The position numbers and the translations under genes were made by a program. From Turneriella sp. (GTDB taxonomy: Bacteria; Spirochaetota; Leptospiria; Turneriellales; Turneriellaceae): 64,000 nucleotides of DNA. The stretch is taken from assembly GCA_965279515.1 (NCBI GenBank), contig CBDIID010000003.1, positions 384,001 to 448,000 on the forward strand, read 5' to 3'. Below, one piece after another: positions 13,656 to 25,594 of the stretch (positions are counted from its first letter, which is position 1; each line of letters begins with the position of its first letter). Under the pieces are notes generated by a model. That model was not told the origin of the DNA. It ran no database searches and saw only the letters and a list, made by a program, of their open reading frames with translations.

Positions 13656-14894
13656 TTATCCGAGACCGCCGCGCAGGCGTGTGGCGAGGGCAACACGTTC
13701 GACGGCGATGAGGAATGCCGCGGTGCGCAGGTCGGTTTTTCGCCCCTGCGCCAGTGCGACGACAGCGCGGCAGGCAGCGTTCATTTTCTGCTCCAGCGCG
13801 GTATTGACCTGCTCTTCGCTCCAGCCATAACGCTGCGCATTCTGCACCCATTCAAAATAAGAAACCGTGACGCCGCCGGCATTACAGAGTATGTCGGGAA
13901 TGATCGTGACGCCGCGCTGGCGCAGCAGCTGGTCTGCTTCAGGTGTCAAAGGATGGTTCGCAGCTTCGGCAATAAACCGGGCTTTGACGGCAGCGGCATT
14001 GCCGGCATGGATAACTCCGCCCAGCGCCGCCGGCACCAGCACATCGCATTCGAGGGCGAGAAGTTCGTCATTGCTGACCGGTTCGCCCGCGAATGCGGAT
14101 AACCCCCGTGCGCCGGTGGCATAAGCCTGCATGCCAGCAGCGATCTTCAAGCCATCTTTATGAAAGACGCCGCCTGTGGAATTGCTGACTGCAATGACAT
14201 GCCCGCCGAGCTCTGAAAGAATTTTCGCCATCCAGGCCGCGACATTGCCGAGGCCCTGTATGGCAAATGTTTTTCCATGGATGCCGCCGGCATTCAGGGA
14301 CGCCAGTATTTCGCGGATGGTAAAGACGGCACCCCGCCCGGTGGCGGCGTCGCGCCCGGGCGAGCCGCCGAGTTCCAGGGGTTTTCCCGTCACCACACCC
14401 GGAGCATAACCATGGAGCTTCTCATACTCATCGAGAAACCACGCCATCTCTGCGGCACCCGTGCCGACATCGGGAGCCGGTATATCGCGGTCAGGCCCGA
14501 CAATTTCATGGATGGAACGGACGAAGGCACGCATGAGCCGTTGTTTTTCCCGCGCGGACAGTGCCGCCGGGTTACAGGCGACTGCTCCCTTCGCACCGCC
14601 CAGGGGGATATCCACGACGGCGCATTTCCAGGTCATGAGCGAGGCGAGGCTGCGCACTTCGTCGAGATTGACATCGGGATGAAAACGAATACCGCCCTTG
14701 AAAGGGCCGCGCGAATTGTCGTGCTGAACACGGTATGCGGTAAAAACAGCGGGATCACCTTTGTCATTGGCAATCGCCAGTTTGACCTGTGTCTCGCGCA
14801 CCGGGATGCGCAGCCTCTGTTCGAGAATGGCGTCAAGGCCCGCCAGCGCAAAGGCGTTATCTAAAAAGAAATTGGTCTGCTCAAAGGGCGTCAA
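13656..14894 (-). CDS. gdhA: Glu/Leu/Phe/Val dehydrogenase (glutamate dehydrogenase)
   Basis: RGPFKGGIRF, MTWK, GGAKG, DIPAPD, VTGKP, NAGGVTVSYFEWVQN. Confidence 0.9.
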   Translation of the reverse strand: MTPFEQTNFFLDNAFALAGLDAILEQRLRIPVRETQVKLAIANDKGDPAVFTAYRVQHDNSRGPFKGGIRFHPDVNLDEVRSLASLMTWKCAVVDIPLGGAKGAVACNPAALSAREKQRLMRAFVRSIHEIVGPDRDIPAPDVGTGAAEMAWFLDEYEKLHGYAPGVVTGKPLELGGSPGRDAATGRGAVFTIREILASLNAGGIHGKTFAIQGLGNVAAWMAKILSELGGHVIAVSNSTGGVFHKDGLKIAAGMQAYATGARGLSAFAGEPVSNDELLALECDVLVPAALGGVIHAGNAAAVKARFIAEAANHPLTPEADQLLRQRGVTIIPDILCNAGGVTVSYFEWVQNAQRYGWSEEQVNTALEQKMNAACRAVVALAQGRKTDLRTAAFLIAVERVALATRLRGGLG

Positions 14895-14900
14895 TGGAGG

Positions 14901-15911
14901 TCAAATTACAAAATCCCCGTCAAACGTCTGCACATTGCGTATGCGGTAAAAAACCGCGAGCCCCAGGTTTAATCCCAGTGCCTTACCGGTTTCGTAGGGA
15001 ATCTCGGCTTCGACTACCTGCTGCGTCTTGTCGTCGATGAGCGTCACGCGTGTATAAGGCCCGAGCGGCTGCACGCCTTCGACCTTGGCGCTGAAGTCGG
15101 TCGGAAATTTTTGCACGATATCGACCTCGATTTCATGCGGCCGCACATAACCCTTTCCCTGGATACCTTCGATGCGGCCGTGGAACAGGTTGACATTGCC
15201 CATGAACTGGTAAACAAACGGCGTCTTCGGATTGCGGTAAACATCGTCGGGTGTACCGATCTGCTCGACCTGCCCGCGGTTCAGAATCACCACGCGGTCG
15301 GCGACTTCGAGCGCCTCTTCTTGATCATGCGTCACGAAGATACTCGTGATATGAATTTCATCGTGCAGCTTGCGCAGCCAGCGGCGCAGCTCTTTGCGCA
15401 CCTGTGCATCTAACGCACCAAAGGGTTCGTCGAGTAGCAGTACTTTAGGTTCTACGGCGAGCGCCCTCGCCAGCGCCACGCGCTGCCTTTGGCCGCCCGA
15501 CAGTTGGTGCGGATAGCGGTCTTCGAGATTCGCGAGCTGCACGAGGCCCAAAAGTTTCATCACGCGTTCGCGGATTTCTTCTTTGGAGGGGCGGAATTTT
15601 TTCTTGCGCACTTTGAGACCGAAGGCGACGTTATCAAAAATCGTCATGTGTTTGAAGAGCGCATAGTGCTGGAACACAAAGCCGACATTGCGTTCTTTCG
15701 CCGTCAGCGTCTGCACGTCGGTGCCGTCGAAGCGAATAATGCCGGATTCGGGAAATTCAAGACCTGCAATGATGCGCAAAAGCGTTGTCTTGCCGCAACC
15801 CGATGGCCCCAAGAGCGCCAAAAGCTCGCCGTGTCCCGCTTCGATCGAGACATTGTTCAGGGCTTTGAAATTCTTAAAGGTTTTACTGAGATTTTCTACT
15901 TGTATTTGCAT
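14901..15911 (-). CDS. cysA: Sulfate/thiosulfate ABC transporter ATP-binding protein
   Basis: [39 protein letters not shown]-like tail; follows cysW. Confidence 0.93.
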
Positions 15912-15931
15912 GCGAAGTTTCCGTTTCTTTT

Positions 15932-16019
15932 TTAAACCGCAAAGTACGCTGAGGTACGCTGAGTATTTGCGGCAAACGCTGTGCCTTTCTTTGCGTCACT
16001 CTGCGCCCTCTGCGGTTAA
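15932..16019. repeat. REP-like palindromic element overlapping the cysW stop codon
   Basis: ttaaaccgcaaag-tacgctgag-gtacgctgag ... ctttgcg-tcactctgcg-ccctctgcggttaa: imperfect inverted arms with internal tandem units. Confidence 0.7.
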
Positions 16020-16850
16020 TTTTTGTGACAGCTTTGCCTTGAGTTCAACCAGTGTTTTGACCATCAGCGTCGCGAGAGCCAGAAACGCCAAAAGCGACGC
16101 GACAGCAAACGCCGCCGTAAAATTATATTCATTGTAGAGGATTTCCACGTGCAGGGGCATGGTATTCGTTTCGCCGCGGATATGCCCCGAGACCACGGAG
16201 ACCGCGCCGAACTCACCCATCGCGCGCGCATTGCATAAAATTACGCCGTAAATGAGCCCCCATTTGATGTTAGGCAGGGTCACCATGAAAAACATCCGCA
16301 GCGGCGATGCGCCCAGCATCAGCGCCGCTTCTTCTTCACTCTTGCCCTGCTCTTCCATGAGCGGTATGAGTTCACGCGCCACAAAGGGAAATGTCACAAA
16401 GACGGTTGCGAGTACGATGCCCGGTATCGCAAAGATAATCTTGATACCGGCGCCAGAAAGTGCCCCGCCGAGCCAGCCCTGCAAACCGAAAATAAGCACA
16501 TAGATAAGCCCTGAAATCACCGGTGAAATCGCAAAGGGCAAATCGATGAGCGAGACGAGAAAACTCTTGCCCCAGAAATCAAATTTTGCCACGGCGTACG
16601 CGGCCACGACTCCAAACACGAGGTTCAGCGGCACCGAAATGCCCGCGGCAATCAATGTCAGTTTAATTGCCTCCCATGTTACCGGATCCGCGAGAGATTC
16701 GACATAATACCCCCAACCTTTGTTAAAAGCCTGTGTGAAAATTTCGTAAAGCGGCAAAACTAAAAGCAGCGTTAGAAATCCTACGGCGAAGCCGATGAAA
16801 GTAATTTTGAGCCAGAGTGGATCCTGAATTTGTGCGCTTGTCTTCTTCAT
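15996..16850 (-). CDS. cysW: Sulfate ABC transporter permease CysW
   Basis: DLPFAISPVISG, FPFVARELIP, EEEAA..LGA, ARAMGEFGAVSVVSG. Confidence 0.95.
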   Translation of the reverse strand: MKKTSAQIQDPLWLKITFIGFAVGFLTLLLVLPLYEIFTQAFNKGWGYYVESLADPVTWEAIKLTLIAAGISVPLNLVFGVVAAYAVAKFDFWGKSFLVSLIDLPFAISPVISGLIYVLIFGLQGWLGGALSGAGIKIIFAIPGIVLATVFVTFPFVARELIPLMEEQGKSEEEAALMLGASPLRMFFMVTLPNIKWGLIYGVILCNARAMGEFGAVSVVSGHIRGETNTMPLHVEILYNEYNFTAAFAVASLLAFLALATLMVKTLVELKAKLSQKLTAEGAE

Positions 16851-17671
16851 GTAACCTTTCTCTTCTGGCGTATCTGCAAATAGTTCAGGATGAGGAGCAG
16901 CGCAAAGGAAATCATCAGCATCACAGCCGCCACCGCCGTCGCGCCCTGCACATTGTGCTGCTCGAGTTTGGTGATGATGATGAGCGGCGTGATTTCACTT
17001 TTGAACGGAATATTGCCAGCAATAAAGATCACGCTGCCGTACTCACCCAGCGCGCGGGAGAACGCCATGATCGTACCTGAAAACAGCGCGGGTAATAGCG
17101 ATGGTAAGATGACGCGGGTGATCGTCTGCCAGCGCGTTGCTCCCAAACTCGCCGCAGCCTCTTCGACTTCTTTTTCAAAGTCTTCTAGCACGGGCTGTAC
17201 CGAACGCACGACGAAAGGCAGACCGATAAAAGTCAGTGCAATTGTGATGCCGATGGGGTTATAGGCGGCCTTGATGCCAGCCTTCATGAGTGGCGCGCCT
17301 AAAATACCGTTCTCTGCATAGACGGTGGAAAGCGCGATACCGGCAACGGCTGTCGGCAATGCGAACGGGAGATCGACTAATGTGTCGAGCAGGCGTTTGC
17401 CCCAAAAAGTATACCGCGTCAGCACCCAGGCTATCACGAAACCGGCAAAGAGGTTGATCATCGCCGCGATAAATGCCGTCAAAAAACTCAAACGTAAGGA
17501 GATGAGGGTACGTTCTGAAAAGGCATGCTCGGCAAAATCAGCCCAGCCCAAAGAAAAACTCTTCGCAAACATCGCACCGAGTGGAATTAATACAATAACG
17601 GCGAGATAAATTACCGTGTAGGTAGAGGTTATCTTAAAACCAGGTAGGATGGATTTTTCGCGGAAAGTCAA
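16847..17671 (-). CDS. cysT: Sulfate ABC transporter permease CysT (start re-called at TTG 17671)
   Basis: SILPGF N-terminus, DLPFALPTAVAG, EEAAASLGA, RALGEYGSVIFIAGN; the longer ORF start lies inside a repeat. Confidence 0.93.
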   Translation of the reverse strand: MTFREKSILPGFKITSTYTVIYLAVIVLIPLGAMFAKSFSLGWADFAEHAFSERTLISLRLSFLTAFIAAMINLFAGFVIAWVLTRYTFWGKRLLDTLVDLPFALPTAVAGIALSTVYAENGILGAPLMKAGIKAAYNPIGITIALTFIGLPFVVRSVQPVLEDFEKEVEEAAASLGATRWQTITRVILPSLLPALFSGTIMAFSRALGEYGSVIFIAGNIPFKSEITPLIIITKLEQHNVQGATAVAAVMLMISFALLLILNYLQIRQKRKVT

Positions 17672-17778
17672 ACCCCACCCCCTAACCCCCTCCCCATTAC
17701 ATGGAGAGGGGGAAAAAGAAGTTCCCCAAACCCCTCTCCACATCGTGGGGAGGGGTGGCCGTAGGCCGGGGTGGGGTT
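17671..17778. repeat. G/C-rich REP-like double-hairpin element filling the sbp-cysT gap
   Basis: Terminal IR aaccccacccc (17671-17681)/ggggtggggtt (17768-17778) enclosing two hairpins, cccctcccca..tggagagggg and cccctctcca..tggggagggg. Confidence 0.8.
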
Positions 17779-18811
17779 AGCGACGATAGACCTGATCAAA
17801 CAGCCCTCCGTCGGCAAAATGTTCTTTGTTCGCTTTATCCCAGCCGCCGAAGGTCGCATCGACCGTGACGAGCCGTACCGGCTTCACGTGCGCATAGTGT
17901 TTGGCGATATCGGTCTTGCGGGGACGGAAAAAATTCTTGCCGGCCAGATTTTGCCCTGCGTCGGAATACAGGTATTGCAGGTAGGCGGCGGCGATTTCCT
18001 GATTGCCTTTTTTAATAGCGTTGCCTTCCATGAGGGCGACGCTCGGTTCGGCGAGAATGCTGAGCGATGGAATAACAATTTCAAACTGCCCGCCCAACTC
18101 CTTTACCGCGAGGTAGGCTTCGTTTTCCCAGGCAATCAGCACATCGCCGAGTTTGCGCTGCGTGAAGGTTGTCGTCGCACCGCGGGCACCGGCATCCAGC
18201 ACGGCCACGTTCTTATATAAAGCACGCAGAAATTCTTTTCCACGCGCAGCCGCGCTGCCGCCATCTTCCGGGTGCCCCGGAACTCCGCGCGGCCCAGTGC
18301 CTCGTGCACCGTGGGCATACGCCGCGAGATGGTTCCAACGCGCACCGCCCGAGGTTTTCGGGTTGGGTGTAATCACTGAAACGCCGGCTTTTATGAGGTC
18401 ATCCCAATCCTTAATATTTTTAGGATTTCCCTTACGAACCAAAAATACGATCGTTGAGGTATAGGGCGCACTGTTATCGGGCAGCCTCTTCTGCCAGTCG
18501 CTGGGTGCAATCTTCGCTTCGCGCGCAATGGCGTCGATATCTGAAGAGAGCGCCAGCGTGACAACGTCGGCAGCCAGACCGTCGATCACGGAACGCGCCT
18601 GTTTGCCGCTGCCGCCATGCGACATATGGAAACGTACTTCGTCTTGCGGGTGAGTTGTTTTCCAGTGTTTGAGGAATGCTTCATTATACTCGCGGTAGAA
18701 TTCGCGCGTGGGATCATAAGAGACGTTCATGAGCTCGCGCGTCGCCTTTTTACCGCCGCAGGCAGTCAGGGCAGCGATGAACAGAATAAACTTTAACGGA
18801 CTTTTTTTCAT
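17777..18811 (-). CDS. sbp: Sulfate-binding protein, lipoprotein paralog (Sbp2)
   Basis: LTAC lipobox; [33 protein letters not shown]. Confidence 0.93.
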   Translation of the reverse strand: MKKSPLKFILFIAALTACGGKKATRELMNVSYDPTREFYREYNEAFLKHWKTTHPQDEVRFHMSHGGSGKQARSVIDGLAADVVTLALSSDIDAIAREAKIAPSDWQKRLPDNSAPYTSTIVFLVRKGNPKNIKDWDDLIKAGVSVITPNPKTSGGARWNHLAAYAHGARGTGPRGVPGHPEDGGSAAARGKEFLRALYKNVAVLDAGARGATTTFTQRKLGDVLIAWENEAYLAVKELGGQFEIVIPSLSILAEPSVALMEGNAIKKGNQEIAAAYLQYLYSDAGQNLAGKNFFRPRKTDIAKHYAHVKPVRLVTVDATFGGWDKANKEHFADGGLFDQVYRR

Positions 18812-18856
18812 TATAACGACCGACGAATTCGAGAATTCAGACACTCCGTCAATGAC

Positions 18857-19031
18857 GGTAACTTTGAGGGCATGCCGTCCCCGGTCTTAGCAAAACCGGG
18901 AGCAGCGAAGCGCTTTAGTCGCTGACCAAGAGGTCCACGACCTATTGGCAGTCGTTTGTCTTCAAACAACGCGAACCGTCTTCGGGTCTCCGCTTCGGAG
19001 GCTCCCGGTTTTGCCATGCCCTCAAATTACC
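18857..19031. repeat. Highly structured 175-bp intergenic element (MITE-like or structured RNA)
   Basis: Nested IRs ggtaactttgagggcatg/catgccctcaaattacc, gcaaaaccgggagc/gctcccggttttgc, cgaagcg/cgcttcg, plus three inner hairpins. Confidence 0.75.
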
Positions 19032-19037
19032 AGAGCA

Positions 19038-20036
19038 CTATTTCCGGTAGATCTGGTCGAAGGTGCCCCCGTCGGCAAAGTGTGTTTTTGCCGCGTTTTT
19101 CCATCCACCGAAAACACCGTCTACCGTAATCAGTTTGAGGTTCTTGAAGTGGTTGAAACGCGCCGCCGCCTTGGGGTTACGCGGGCGGTAATAGTGTTTC
19201 GCCGCGATATTCTGCCCCTCGGGTGATTCGAGATAGTCGAGGTAAGCTTTCGCGATTTCGGCATTCCCCTTGCGGTTCGCATTGACATCCACTACAGATA
19301 CCGACGGTTCTGCGAGGATACTGAAGGACGGAATCACCACATCGTACTGATCAGGGCCGAGCTCCTTAATCGCGAGAAAGGCCTCGTTTTCCCAGGCGAT
19401 ATAGACGTCGCCAATCTTGCGCTGCGTGAAGGTCGTCGTCGCGCCGCGCGCACCGGTATCGAGCACGGCGACGTTTTTATAGATCGCCGTCACGAATTCC
19501 TTCGGATCCTTTTTTTTATCCAGCGCGTAACCCCATGCCGCCAGGTAATTCCACTGCGCGCCGCCCGAGGTTTTTGGGTTCGGGGTAATGACCGACACGC
19601 CGGGCTTGCCCAGGTCGTCCCAGTCCTTAATCCCCTTAGGATTTCCCTTACGCACTAGAAACACAATCGTCGACGTATAGGGTGCGCTGTTGTTTGGCCG
19701 GCGCTTCTGCCAGTCTTCAGGCAAAAGTTTTGCTTTCTCGGCGATCACGCTGACGTCGTTCGCCAGGGCGAGTGTCACCACATCGGCGTCGAGGCCGTCG
19801 ACAACCGAACGGGCTTGTTTGCCGCTACCGCCATGCGATTGCCGGAACTTAACGTTATCCTGCGGATGCGTCGCTTTCCAGTGGCGGGCAAACGCCGCAT
19901 TAAATTCTCGGTAAAGTTCGCGTGTCGGGTCATACGAGACATTGAGCAGCTCGTAGTCTTTCGCCGCAACCTCGCCGCCGACAAGGGCGGTCAGGATGGT
20001 GGCGAGGTAAATAATTTTCAGATTTTTCACTTTCAT
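19038..20036 (-). CDS. sbp: Sulfate-binding protein, periplasmic paralog (Sbp1); start ATG 20036 or GTG 20030
   Basis: Same Sbp motifs; signal peptide without Cys; AAGGAG upstream. Confidence 0.93.
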
Positions 20037-20056
20037 CTCCTTCAGTATATTGGCAA

Positions 20057-21649
20057 TCAATCAAAAAGCAGGGCGGAAAGCTCGAGATACGCGAAATGCG
20101 AATCACCCGGGCGTTTGAATTTTTCGGTGTAGGCCCCTGCCTTGAAATAGGCGTAACCGATATTCACCTTCAGGTGTGGGAACGGATAGCGAATACGAAT
20201 GTTGTACTCTTCACCGAATTTGCTGTCGGTGTTGGCGTTGCCCGCAGCTGTGGCATTGCTCAGGATGCCGGCATTGTTCCAGCGATCTTTCGGGCTCGCT
20301 GCCCAATACCAGACATAAGCAGTATCGATCTTGAGTTTTTCGATCGGTTCAAACTCGAGAATAACCTTCGGTGTTTCGAGGTTTTCTAACTGGAAATAGT
20401 CGTTCGCGGACCAGGGCCTCGCGAACCCATAAAGCCTTTCGAAGCGGTTCTGTGTATTGTCGGTACGGTCAAGGTCGCCTGAAATGAAGGCATAGAAACC
20501 AGCAAGGCGGGGTTTCCACGAATGCTTGAAGGTGTAACCGACTTCTGCCGTGGTATAAAATGCATCCTGTTTGCGTTCGACGGCGTTAGCACCCAGCTGG
20601 TCTACACCAAATTGTTTGGTATAAGAGAAGTCATAGTCAAAGCCGGATTTACCAAGCACGGCGTATACACGACCACCCACGGTATGAATGTCTCTGAACG
20701 AACGCGCACCAGCGTCGCTTGTGGGATACCAATCCAGCCTGGCCGGCTGATTATCCTGGTTAAGACCGAAATAGTAAGGCTGAATCGTCACCCATTGCGA
20801 CCATTCACGCACATTAAGCACCGCGCCATAAAACCACTGCTGGCCGATGGGTTGATCAATTTTCTCAATCTCGCGGATTAATGGTTGAGCGCCAATCAGG
20901 TTCAGATCCCAGTTGTTTTCTTTTTTTCCGATGGAGATCCAACCACCCTGAAAGGTGTTCGTCGTGTTGCGCCATTCGTTGAGACCCACGAGACGGCGAT
21001 CGGTCAGCTCGAGCGCATAACGCCCGCCGCGCACCGTGAGTGGGCGATTGTAGCCAAAAAAGTTTTTAAAGTGTAACTCGGCGTAGGCCTGAATGGGCTC
21101 TAAATAATTGAAATCCCGTGTATCCGCCGCAGTTGCGATCGGTGTGCGGCGCGAATCCTGTACTTCACCAACCAACCGAAACCAATCAAATTCGAGTTTT
21201 AGGAATGCCCGCGTCTTGAACAGTACAGGGGTTTCCTGTATTGCGGGGTTACCGGTTGGCCCTTGAGGATTTACAGGGCTATTCGCCCGACGAAAGTCGT
21301 TTTGACGAATTTCACCGCGGGTGCGCTGTTCGATACCAAAGATGATCCAGTCGATGTTCTTAAAGACACCGATACCGGTTTCACTGAGTCGCTTCGCGTA
21401 AGCGGGTTGCGTGCTATCGATGGGTTCTGTACCATAACTCGGTGAACGGACATAATAGCTGTCCTTTACTTCTGTGGTTGCTGCCTTTTTATCGGCTTCG
21501 CTGACTTCCGGTGGAATGGACTCGTCGTCTTTTACGGCTTTCTCTGCCGCTTCTGCTGGTTTTGCCTTCTTCGGCGCCGCAAATAACGGGCTTGCAAAGA
21601 CCGCTCCTGCGACAGCGAAGAAGAAAACTTTCTTAATAATCGTTTTCAT
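20057..21649 (-). CDS. Alginate-export-family outer-membrane beta-barrel (probable sulfate/anion porin)
   Basis: Signal peptide; 'QDSR', 'IQAY', '[16 protein letters not shown]', 'SGD......RFERLYG'; first gene of sbp-cysTWA run. Confidence 0.75.
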
Positions 21650-21663
21650 TTTTTATCTCCCTT

Positions 21664-21715
21664 TGCACACGAGGTGCATGGAATGCGGCGCACATGGATG
21701 TGCATTGCCGCATTC
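21664..21715 (-). promoter_or_regulatory. Two stem-loops immediately upstream of the porin RBS
   Basis: gaatgcggc-gcacat-gg-atgtgc-att-gccgcattc (21681-21715) and tgcac-acgag-gtgca (21664-21678); RBS GGGAG at 21657-21661. Confidence 0.55.
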
Positions 21716-21774
21716 TTAGTTTTAATCCCCGCTATCTAAACAAAACTTTGTTTCGCTTCAGATGCGCAGGGATA

Positions 21775-21939
21775 TCACCTTCTTATGTGCAGAAGGGGAT
21801 AGCCGCGGGCACCCTGGCAACAGGATGTTGCGGGGGCTGCGGCGCACCAGCGGCGTTTGGAACAAACGCCTGTGGTGCAAGCCGCGGCCTCGCGCGCGCG
21901 ACAACAGCAACAACAGGAGTTTTTCACGAAATTTTTCAT
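21775..21939 (-). CDS. Poly-cysteine leader peptide (54 aa), candidate Cys-sensing attenuator
   Basis: MKNFVKNSCCCCCRAREAAACTTGVCSKRRWCAAAPATSCCQGARGYPLLHIRR*: 10 Cys, five consecutive; lies between cysK and the sulfate-uptake genes. Confidence 0.65.
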   Translation of the reverse strand: MKNFVKNSCCCCCRAREAAACTTGVCSKRRWCAAAPATSCCQGARGYPLLHIRR

Positions 21940-21973
21940 AGTCAATGATTCGCTGTCAGAATCTCCGCCATGA

Positions 21974-22882
21974 TTAAAAGAGACCTTCGATCGAGAGATA
22001 ACGTTCACCCGTATCGTAGTTGAACGTGAGAATGCGCGCGCCTTTTTTGAGTTCGGGAAGTTTTTTCGCCACCGCGGCGAGCGACGCACCGCTGGAGATA
22101 CCACCGAAAAGCGCCTCTTCGCGCGCAGCGCGTTTGGCATATTCAAACGCTTCTTCTTTCGTGACCTGGATCACGCCGGTGAGAAGTTCTTTTTTCAGGT
22201 TCTTCGGGATAAAACCCGCGCCGATACCCTGGATTGGGTGCGGAGCCGGATTGCCGCCGGAAATTACCGGAGACGCTGCAGGTTCAACCGCATAGACTTC
22301 GAGATTAGGCCATTTTTCGCGTAGCGTTTGCGCGAGTGCCGTGATATGCCCGCCGGTACCGACGCCGGTGATGACGACATCTATACCTTCGGGGAAATCG
22401 CGGAGTACTTCTTGCGCGGTAAATTTAGTGTGCGCGGCGATATTGGCTTCGTTCTCGAACTGCTGTGGGATCCACGAGTTTGGGGTTTGCGCCGAAAGTT
22501 CGTTCGCGCGTTCGATCGCACCCTTCATGCCTTTTTCACGCGGCGTAAGATCGAATGTTGCCCCATATGCAGCCATAACTGCGCGGCGCTCGACCGACAT
22601 GCTCTCGGGCATAACAAGAATGAGTTTATATTTTTTCGCAGCGGCGACGAGGGCAAGGCCAATACCGGTGTTACCCGATGTCGGTTCGATGATGACACTG
22701 CCCGGCTTCAGTATACCGCGGCGTTCTGCGTCTTCGACCATCGATAACGCGATACGGTCTTTAATACTGCCGCCCGGATTCTGGCGTTCCAGTTTTACCC
22801 AAACTTCGGCGTCGCCGAACAGGTGCTTGATACGTAAATGCGGCGTATTGCCGATTGCTTCGAGAATGCTATGTATCTTCAT
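21974..22882 (-). CDS. cysK: Cysteine synthase A (start re-called at MKIHSI, 22882)
   Basis: [14 protein letters not shown] (PLP Lys), [31 protein letters not shown]. Confidence 0.96.
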
Positions 22883-22962
22883 AAATAACTCCTTAATTTG
22901 AATTAACCGGGTGTTTTTTCGAAGCCCCGGTGCTTCCGGGGCAATCCGGGAGTGCTCCCGAA

Positions 22963-23076
22963 TTATCCCTGAAGCGCCGAACAGCCAAGGAAACACGATG
23001 TGTCCGGGCCTGCGCAGCACGCAGAGATGCGACAGCAGCGTGACATTGAACTAAAATCTGCTATACCGAACGTCAT
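22963..23076 (-). CDS. Cys-rich leader peptide upstream of cysK (37 aa; 27 aa from ATG 23046)
   Basis: [37 protein letters not shown]: 6 Cys including two CC pairs; followed by two hairpins before the cysK RBS. Confidence 0.6.
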
Positions 23077-23085
23077 TCTGCGCGG

Positions 23086-23115
23086 AAGATACTCAGGCGA
23101 CCGACACTACGTCAA
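23086..23115 (-). promoter_or_regulatory. Candidate sigma70 promoter for leader-cysK
   Basis: TTGACG (23115-23110) - 18 nt - TATCTT (23091-23086), 9 nt before leader ATG. Confidence 0.5.
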
Positions 23116-23134
23116 CAAAAACAGACAAACATCC

Positions 23135-23752
23135 ATGAAAACGAACAAGAAAAAAAAGCCCGAACCTCCCGCTCCGGCGACCAGCGGAGAAAACCTCACA
23201 GGGGTAGTCGCAGAAAACGTTAAACGACTGCGCAGTGACATGGATTTATCGCTCGATAAACTCGCAGGACTCTCCGGTGTTTCAAAAGCAATGCTGAGCC
23301 AGATCGAACAGGCTCGCAGCGCCCCCTCGATCAATGTGCTCTGGAAGATTGCCCGTGCGCTCGATGTGCCTTTTGCGGCACTAATCTCAAAGCGCACGGA
23401 TTCCCAGCTGCAGGTTGTGCGCAAAAGTGAAATGAAAGTGCTTTCATCACAGAAGGGAAATTTCCAGTCGAAGGCCCTGTTTCCGCTCGACATAGCCCGG
23501 CGCGTTGAATTCTACGAACTGCTGCTCAAGGCTGGCTGCGTCGAGCGCGCTGTGCCCCACCCCGCCGGTACGGCAGAGAATATCGTTGTGTCTGAGGGCG
23601 AGCTGGAGATTGAAATCGGCGGACAGAGAACTTTATTAAAAGAGGGCGACTCCATTTACTTCGTGGCCGACGTGCCGCATATTTACCGCAGCATCGGATC
23701 CAAAGACACACGCGCCTATCTCGTGATGACATACGCAGAAAAGCGCGTGTAA
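23135..23752 (+). CDS. XRE-family HTH + cupin transcriptional regulator (SutR/PuuR-like)
   Basis: 'LSLDKLAGLSGVSKAMLSQIE...PSINVLWKIA' and cupin 'H...E...V..G...GDSIYF.ADVPH.Y'; start re-called at 23135. Confidence 0.9.
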   Translation: MKTNKKKKPEPPAPATSGENLTGVVAENVKRLRSDMDLSLDKLAGLSGVSKAMLSQIEQARSAPSINVLWKIARALDVPFAALISKRTDSQLQVVRKSEMKVLSSQKGNFQSKALFPLDIARRVEFYELLLKAGCVERAVPHPAGTAENIVVSEGELEIEIGGQRTLLKEGDSIYFVADVPHIYRSIGSKDTRAYLVMTYAEKRV

Positions 23753-23801
23753 GCAATTTTCTGTTCAGCCGGTCTCTTTGCCCGTATTCACCGCTCACTA
23801 A

Positions 23802-25130
<1,329 letters not shown>

Positions 25131-25137
25131 TTGAATC

Positions 25138-25163
25138 GCCCGCGGGGAGATATCCCCGTGGGC
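25138..25163. terminator. Hairpin between convergent metY and YeeE genes
   Basis: gcccgcgggga-gata-tccccgtgggc; no clear U-tract. Confidence 0.45.
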
Positions 25164-25183
25164 CGATCTAAGCTGCCGGCAAA

Positions 25184-25594
25184 TCAGCTGGCGCGCTTCT
25201 CTTCTAACCACGCATAGACGTAAGTTCCCAGGAAGATACCCAGCACAATAAACGCGCCTGAGTGGAGTCCATAACCCAGAATTGCGAGCGCGGGGCCGGG
25301 GCATGCGCCTGTTAAGGCCCAGCCTGCTCCCGAAATCAGTCCACCAACCACGTGATTTTTGGACAGTTTCTCCACATTCCACTCGGTTTCGCCGCCCAAA
25401 AGCGGCTGGCGCCTGAGTTTTTTCCAGAGCTGTACGCCGATAAACGAAACCGGCACGGCAACGCCCAGAACTCCGTACATATGCCATGACTTGAGAAGAA
25501 ACATGTCGCGGATCACATCATAACTCGACACGCCTGCGCGGATGAGTATGTAGCCGAACGCAGTACCCAGCACCAGGAAAACAATGCGCAACAT
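25184..25594 (-). CDS. YeeE/YedE-family sulfur-transport protein (small, C-half type)
   Basis: 'GGLISGAGWALTGACPGP'. Confidence 0.85.
   Translation of the reverse strand: MLRIVFLVLGTAFGYILIRAGVSSYDVIRDMFLLKSWHMYGVLGVAVPVSFIGVQLWKKLRRQPLLGGETEWNVEKLSKNHVVGGLISGAGWALTGACPGPALAILGYGLHSGAFIVLGIFLGTYVYAWLEEKRAS

Follow-up and report, generated by a model that had tools for sequence, protein, structure and literature searches.

Sensing of an amino acid through a leader peptide is textbook knowledge for the trp, his, leu and thr operons, in which tandem regulatory codons lie in a short open reading frame (ORF), as they do here. For cysteine (Cys), such sensing has to our knowledge been demonstrated in mycobacteria alone, with predictions for a few further groups. 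Here we analyse a locus of the spirochaete Turneriella sp. (assembly GCA_965279515.1, a 4.9-Mb genome) that lies in a stretch of 64,000 nt, hereafter the window (contig CBDIID010000003.1, positions 384,001 to 448,000). In this locus two Cys-rich short ORFs, leader 1 and leader 2, stand ahead of the cysteine synthase gene cysK and, behind cysK, ahead of a run of sulfate uptake genes (porin-sbp-sbp-cysT-cysW-cysA). Both ORFs are enriched in in-frame Cys codons, leader 2 keeps its position among relatives, structured RNA follows each leader, and the proteins encoded downstream are poor in sulfur. We read leader 2, and here also leader 1, as translated mini-genes that would sense charged tRNA-Cys by ribosome stalling and thereby raise the expression of the genes downstream, a reading to which we assign a probability of about 0.62. 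Leader 2 itself is very likely functional.

The closest described systems are treated in three reports, to parts of which the following comparison refers. Polycysteine short ORFs serve mycobacteria as attenuators that respond to cysteine, and leaderless ORFs of this kind are described at Ms5788A and five other loci (10.1101/834739). Leader peptides with Cys runs were predicted upstream of Mycobacterium and Propionibacterium acnes cys operons and upstream of cbs in Bifidobacterium longum, and Rho-dependent termination was proposed for them (PMC1262725). The uORFC-8-2 motif precedes cysS in Rhodobacterales, and stalling on it was proposed to report the charging of tRNA-Cys (PMC8632094). The first-pass annotation of the window had presented the present arrangement as a candidate for an undescribed system, a description that has to be given up since Cys-codon leaders were already published for Actinobacteria and for cysS of Rhodobacterales. 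A literature search, for which most subscription journals were outside reach, returned no Cys leader described for spirochaetes or ahead of sulfate transport genes.

The Turneriella leaders share with the mycobacterial ORFs (10.1101/834739) consecutive Cys codons ahead of cysteine or sulfur genes and, as far as that report is covered here, the lack of an intrinsic terminator. Unlike those leaderless ORFs, leader 2 is intercistronic, lies behind cysK and is apparently coupled to cysK termination; it belongs to the phylum Spirochaetota, its target is an outer-membrane porin with a sulfate ABC importer, and a hairpin that mimics a Shine-Dalgarno (SD) and an anti-SD sequence surrounds its stop codon. 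With the leaders of PMC1262725 it has in common that it is a prediction from comparative genomics and that no conserved terminator hairpin accompanies it, while the genes and the phylum differ; the Turneriella spacer, being short and highly structured, would offer Rho a poor loading site. Tandem Cys codons in a conserved upstream ORF are also found in uORFC-8-2, which has two of them, closes with an intrinsic terminator bearing a U run and has a tRNA synthetase under its control (PMC8632094). The scan of the Turneriella locus found no U tract, and what lies under putative control there is cysK and the uptake genes. As to the classical trp/his type, its 1:2, 2:3, 3:4 layout with a stop codon after segment 2 is seen in four relatives of our genome, and its intrinsic terminator (hairpin and U tract) before the first structural gene is absent here.

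Leader 2 and its counterparts in relatives

Leader 2 starts 34 nt downstream of the cysK stop codon, and its run of five Cys codons is the sole run of that length in the genome; in block shuffles of the genome the average is 0.4. The genome has one run of six Cys codons, which lies out of frame within a 514-aa ORF, and nearly all other runs of at least four are likewise out of frame within long ORFs. Our background consisted of 807 mostly intergenic upstream regions of 300 nt from the same genome. Of these, 4, this locus counted, contained a short ORF with three consecutive Cys, 31 an ORF with at least five Cys, and 92 two Cys in a row. The objection that Cys-rich short ORFs might be equally frequent elsewhere, which the first-pass annotation had raised against itself, fails at these frequencies, and leader 2 of this locus is not a product of chance.

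Leader 2 is conserved by position and by Cys content. A porin orthologue was recovered from 8 of 13 same-genus genomes and from one genome outside the genus, and a short ORF with two to five tandem Cys codons precedes the porin at all 12 Turneriella-type loci, placed after cysK or, failing that, after the operator. These loci are our own and those of G001, G002, G003, G005, G006, G007, G009, G011, G012, L053 and L055, where G denotes a relative genome and L a locus or contig compared. L053 and L055 are metagenome contigs, and the G006 contig stops just behind leader 2; L039-L043 were left out as the same contigs as G005, G001, G009, G003 and G012, and L054, L060 and L062 for want of upstream DNA. 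At 8 of the 12 loci at least three Cys stand in a row. The ORFs form groups between which the sequences do not align (own/G001/G006; G005/G007; G002/G009/G011/L053; G003/L055; G012), and the Cys run is the sole feature common to all of them. Its length changes by whole codons, and both TGT and TGC are used. Across the 12 ORFs, TGY makes up 67 of 527 codons in frame, compared with 28 and 24 in the other frames, which bears out the earlier description of the ORF as Cys-rich.

Furthermore, the start codon of leader 2 overlaps the stop codon of cysK in L055 (ATGA) and in G003 (GTGA), the usual sign of coupled translation. In G003 the three-Cys frame is shifted by one base relative to its close homologue L055, across the RNA core described below, and the ORF ends about 20 nt later (L008, about 1004-1204); the shift is either genuine or due to an error in the assembly of that genome.

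Outside the genus, G016, from another and A+T-richer genus of the family, has an unrelated ORF with an SD sequence (P0004) and three Cys codons directly before its stop codon. Some 90 nt downstream of it comes a porin-like ORF of 115 aa, which is followed by sbp and a cysT-like permease ORF. In G014, from another genus, no tandem Cys was present within about 450 nt upstream of the porin.

Sulfur is avoided in the proteins encoded directly behind the leaders. There is no Cys in CysK, in the porin or in the first binding protein, just as the initial description of the locus had it, and the initiator methionine (Met) of the porin is its only Met. By crude longest-ORF gene calls, the porin and first binding protein genes are two of only four that are Cys-free with at most one internal Met among 2039 genes of at least 300 aa. 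The other two are at C3:554474-555658 and C3:1319053-1320006. In the second binding protein (17777-18844) a single Cys is present, within the signal region at the N terminus.

These observations bear on the possibility that the products of the ORFs are small Cys-rich proteins, co-expressed with the sulfur genes but with a separate function, in metal or redox chemistry or as a trans-acting peptide. Leader ORFs of 27-66 codons do exceed many leader peptides, and leader 2 of our genome, G001 and G006 have N- and C-terminal residues in common. The peptide classes, however, share only Cys and no other residue, the C-terminal residues in question are encoded by the conserved RNA core, and a peptide of 19% Cys made from an operon that avoids sulfur makes little sense as a product. 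We therefore hold a protein function to be very improbable.

The porin gene looks like a mosaic. Its first 45 alignment columns are 86% identical to G001 (L005) and 24% to G005 (L002); beyond about column 90 the identity is 84-97% with G005 and 22-80% with G001. The class of leader 2 and the presence of leader 1 side with G001, and the DNA identity of cysK to the two is about equal (77% and 76%). This pattern suggests that recombination may have swapped the upstream regulatory region, the junction lying within the porin gene, towards its 5′ end.

Leader 1, the operator and the XRE-cupin regulator

The divergent layout of regulator gene and cysK was compared in nine genomes, three of which (our own, G001 and G006) have a Cys ORF between operator and cysK. 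TGY accounts for 14 of 88 codons in frame in these leader 1 ORFs and for 4 and 2 in the other frames, so that in-frame enrichment is found here as well. Leader 1 has 24 codons and 3 Cys in G001 and 27 codons with four Cys in a row in G006 (P0003). The first ten and last four residues are identical between our genome and G006, with an in-frame length difference of ten codons between them. Because the first ten codons coincide with the operator, conservation there is at the DNA level. A near-leaderless start of leader 1 is possible, since its ATG lies 9 nt behind a -10-like hexamer, at a spacing that is equal in G001. All three genomes with leader 1 carry a leader 2 of our own type, and the series leader 1-cysK-leader 2, first noticed in this genome, thus recurs in three species.

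A palindrome that fits GTYYGNTATANCRRAC or comes close to it adjoins the promoter in every Turneriella locus read; our own copy is degenerate, and relatives have better palindromes at the equivalent place. In Leptospira-type loci, which are themselves without leaders, a related half-site stands ahead of the porin. Orthologues of the XRE-cupin regulator are present in 13 of 13 genus relatives and, at 47-48% identity, in 7 of 7 genomes of a Leptospira-like family, and in those relatives whose loci were read, its gene adjoins the locus in divergent orientation. The palindrome is likely the binding site of the XRE-cupin protein, which is itself likely an uncharacterised initiation-level sulfur regulator of Turneriella and its Leptospira relatives. 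A scan of the genome for a wider operator regulon gave 7 matches with at most one mismatch, compared with 5, 9 and 11 in shuffles, that is, chance level; the only other match that seemed intergenic, C3:69692, was ruled out as lying inside a real gene.

Could control of initiation by this protein and its operator be the whole explanation, with the Cys-rich ORFs as by-products of G+C-rich structured RNA? The constancy of the palindrome and of the divergent regulator gene, the half-site ahead of the porin in leaderless loci and the coincidence of the first ten codons of leader 1 with the operator all speak for it. It leaves unexplained the in-frame tandem Cys codons at 12 of 12 loci in classes that do not align, the unrelated three-Cys ORF of G016, the variation of the runs by whole codons and the start/stop overlap with cysK, against a background for three Cys in a row of just 4/807. 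We consider it improbable that initiation control acts alone. As operator and XRE-cupin gene are conserved even where there is no leader, initiation control likely coexists with the leaders and acts alongside them, not in their place.

Structured RNA downstream of the leaders

Between the stop codon of leader 1 and the ribosome-binding site of cysK lie two hairpins, in a region that folds better than shuffles (z -4.0). The second is identical in G006 and its motif is unique in our genome; the first has another sequence in G006, which by reading still folds as a hairpin there. The hairpin that begins at the cysK stop codon and encloses the start of leader 2 is nearly identical in G001 and G006.

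The spacer between leader 2 and the porin is more strongly structured (z -8.2, with none of 100 shuffles as good), and in its minimum-energy fold the porin's ribosome-binding site is paired with the 3′ end of leader 2. We distinguish four hairpins, H1 to H4. One arm of H1 resembles the anti-SD tail of 16S ribosomal RNA and the other is a near-perfect SD sequence; the stop codon of leader 2 (21777-21775) lies within its 3′ arm. H3 shows compensating changes between our genome and G001, in a comparison of two sequences only. The core formed by H1 and H2 is kept at the nucleotide level in 7 genomes, even across differing reading frames (our own and G005), and in every class that has it the leader stop codon falls in the loop or the 3′ arm of H1. 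A covariance model of this core gave one match per genome in the 7 genomes, always at this locus, and G006, which was outside the seed alignment, was matched with an E value of 3.6e-20. In the core alignment 87% of cells pair, compared with 41-60% with slid partners.

These properties raise the alternative that function resides in the RNA core, H1-H2 together with the adjoining elements, as a site for a protein, the ribosome or a small molecule, and that the stop codon of the ORF merely places a ribosome on H1. The conservation of nucleotides across frames, the confinement of a single copy to this locus, the mimicry of SD and anti-SD sequences and the constant place of the stop codon would all be accounted for. 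Against it stand the lack of any Rfam family match, the weakness of the covariation and the Cys leaders of four relatives and of G016, which exist without the core, so that the Cys run is the more general feature. We judge this alternative unlikely.

The four relatives in question, G002, G009, G011 and L053, lack the H1-H2 core but have the layout of a classical attenuator. Hairpin 1:2 starts at the final Cys codon, and the stop codon immediately follows segment 2, to which segment 3 is complementary; a strong hairpin is formed by 3:4. The 2:3 duplex amounts to only -4.6 to -7.0 kcal/mol. An extra small hairpin covers part of the ribosome-binding site in G009 and G011; the predicted tail fold is less clear in G002 and L053 than in these two. 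Such a four-segment layout is not evident in our own genome.

The strong hairpins behind the leaders, including those of the classical-layout class, are followed by A-rich or mixed sequence, with no U tract. A terminator scan gave 6 matches, compared with 3.2 +/- 2.1 in shuffles, and on the minus strand there were just two, one of them antisense to the regulator gene and the other a stem of 5 bp within leader 2 (21882-21868).

Cys-rich ORFs elsewhere in the genome

Three other places with at least four Cys codons in a row were rejected as Cys leaders: C3:508855 is a short repeat with no start codon, ahead of an unknown gene; C3:521586 is an antisense frame of an Ala/Gly-rich gene; and C3:3476496 overlaps coding sequence. 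Outside the window, three more ORFs with three Cys in a row lie in upstream regions (C3:612951, C3:2240830 and C3:1961201-1964503). They precede two putative lipoprotein genes and one large gene whose product, to judge from its N-terminal sequence, resembles a B12-dependent mutase, and no link to sulfur was seen. In the search for other sulfur genes the SATase_N family was not found, and a second NIR_SIR gene was set aside, as it follows a transporter gene and looks like a nitrite reductase.

Gene content of the locus

The features of the locus are collected in Table 1. The gene order on the minus strand given in the first-pass annotation agrees with the ORF listing and with family scans. The cysT ORF as listed is probably over-extended at its 5′ end. 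A 123-aa ORF at 21775-22146 is no gene; it is the frame of leader 2 staying open into the 3′ end of cysK. The same annotation had seen neither a riboswitch nor a CysB/LysR regulator. As to the former, curated Rfam covariance models gave no match in 14000-25500 at E values up to 1, and the scan of 22 ORFs from 8723 to 31821 named none of them as a LysR-type regulator. Its remark on the lack of a regulator has to be qualified, given the conserved XRE-cupin gene and operator.

Table 1. Positions of genes, leaders, RNA elements and control sites in the window; the last row refers to a locus of the relative genome G016
Feature	Position	Strand	Basis
cysA ATPase	14901..15911	-	family scans
cysW permease	15996..16850	-	TIGR02140
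cysT permease	16847..17743	-	TIGR02139; match begins at residue 32
Sulfate-binding protein 2	17777..18844	-	family scans
Sulfate-binding protein 1, 0 Cys	19038..20060	-	family scans
Outer-membrane porin, Alginate_exp family, 530 aa	20057..21649	-	PF13372, 5.5e-79
Porin SD sequence and start codon	21647..21661	-	sequence, folding
H4, small hairpin adjoining the porin ribosome-binding site	21664..21678	-	folding
H3, hairpin	21681..21715	-	folding
H2, hairpin with conserved G+C-rich base and variable insert	21725..21773	-	folding, alignment
H1, hairpin in which an anti-SD-mimic arm pairs with an SD-mimic arm	21774..21800	-	sequence, alignment
Leader ORF 2, 54 codons and stop, 10 Cys	21775..21939	-	ORF listing, translation (P0001)
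Five consecutive Cys codons, codons 9-13 of leader 2	21901..21915	-	sequence, run counts
Hairpin starting right after the cysK stop, enclosing the leader 2 start codon	21936..21973	-	folding
cysK, cysteine synthase A, 302 aa, 0 Cys	21974..22882	-	PALP; TIGR01139, 386 bits (cut-off 351)
Two G+C-rich hairpins, leader 1 stop to cysK ribosome-binding site	22924..22962	-	folding
Leader ORF 1, 37 codons and stop, 6 Cys, two Cys pairs	22963..23076	-	ORF listing, translation (P0002)
Degenerate palindromic operator	23056..23071	.	1 mismatch to GTYYGNTATANCRRAC
Promoter-like site, two hexamers, 18-nt spacer, facing leader 1/cysK	23086..23115	-	9/12 consensus matches
XRE-cupin regulator gene, divergent	23135..23752	+	family scans
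Homocysteine synthase gene, next after the XRE-cupin gene	23811-25130		family scans
43-codon Cys ORF of G016	L077 3067-3195	-	translation

Discussion

In the mechanism that we favour, translation of leader 2 would be coupled to that of cysK, its start codon lying in the hairpin that begins right after the cysK stop. Stalling of a ribosome at the Cys codons would alter the fold downstream (H1 around the leader stop, H2 to H4 and the porin's ribosome-binding site), and upon this refolding the porin-sbp-sbp-cysTWA genes would be made. With leader 1 gating cysK and leader 2 lying behind it, expression of the uptake genes would require that both gates be open. The XRE-cupin protein on its palindromic operator would add control of initiation. 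Taken on its own, the sensing step, that is, stalling at Cys codons, appears probable. For the output step the candidates are unmasking of the ribosome-binding site, which was our first guess, termination without a U tract, and RNA stability.

A more elaborate version is possible and, to our minds, rather doubtful. It would comprise two serial checkpoints, a near-leaderless leader 1 overlapping the operator and gating cysK, and an intercistronic leader 2 whose start only ribosomes completing cysK would open, which ends in the SD-mimic/anti-SD hairpin and gates the sulfur-free uptake proteins, with a segment that reaches at least from cysK over leader 2 to the signal peptide of the porin apparently exchanged between species by recombination. 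Graded induction at two thresholds, suggested when the locus was first annotated, is conjecture.

Several results weigh against sensing of cysteine by these leaders. No SD sequence is obvious for leader 2 of our genome, and in four relatives a GTG is the presumed start of the leader. Because the loci are related by descent, counts such as 12 of 12 overstate their independence. Leader 1 is absent from six of the nine genomes with the regulator/cysK layout (G003, G004, G005, G007, G010 and G012), where the ribosome-binding site of cysK comes directly after the operator, and where leader 1 is present its first ten codons are those of the operator. Eight Leptospira-type porin loci, some of them near-duplicates, showed no Cys leader in three-frame translations; nor is there a leader upstream of the uptake gene in G004 (cysK followed by sbp, with no porin) or in G008, where the regulator adjoins sbp. 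The cysH-cysD-cysN-sulfite reductase operon of our own genome has no Cys leader either. At the RNA level, only one pair of H1 and H2 changes on both sides, which makes the support from covariation weak, and the terminator scan found no hairpin with a U tract between either leader and its next gene.

The output step was examined in a ribosome-footprint model, in which a 27-nt footprint was placed on every codon of 11 leaders and the equilibrium accessibility of the porin ribosome-binding site was computed. Across these leaders the site was no more open with the ribosome at Cys codons than at others; in our own genome the mean unpaired probability was 0.38 at Cys codons and 0.42 elsewhere. In our genome, G012, G003 and L055 the site opens with the ribosome at the 3′ end of the leader, which taken alone has the wrong sign. 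In G005 the modelled site opens about 4-12 codons upstream of the Cys run, a pattern that would, speculatively, fit a queued second ribosome. Cys codons are thus not special in equilibrium folds, which lend no support here to the simple unmasking of a ribosome-binding site by a stalled ribosome, as in the mycobacterial model (10.1101/834739).

Sensing of charged tRNA-Cys by these leaders, if correct, would extend cysteine leader sensing to a spirochaete lineage and to the uptake of sulfate across both membranes. The locus would be a natural case of an attenuator that sits inside an operon, between its genes, and of a serial pair of such sensors. Compact as it is, it would show a terminator-free readout of ribosome stalling, layered on a conventional repressor and operator. 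Should the serial-checkpoint version hold, sulfate import would respond later and more steeply than cysteine synthesis.

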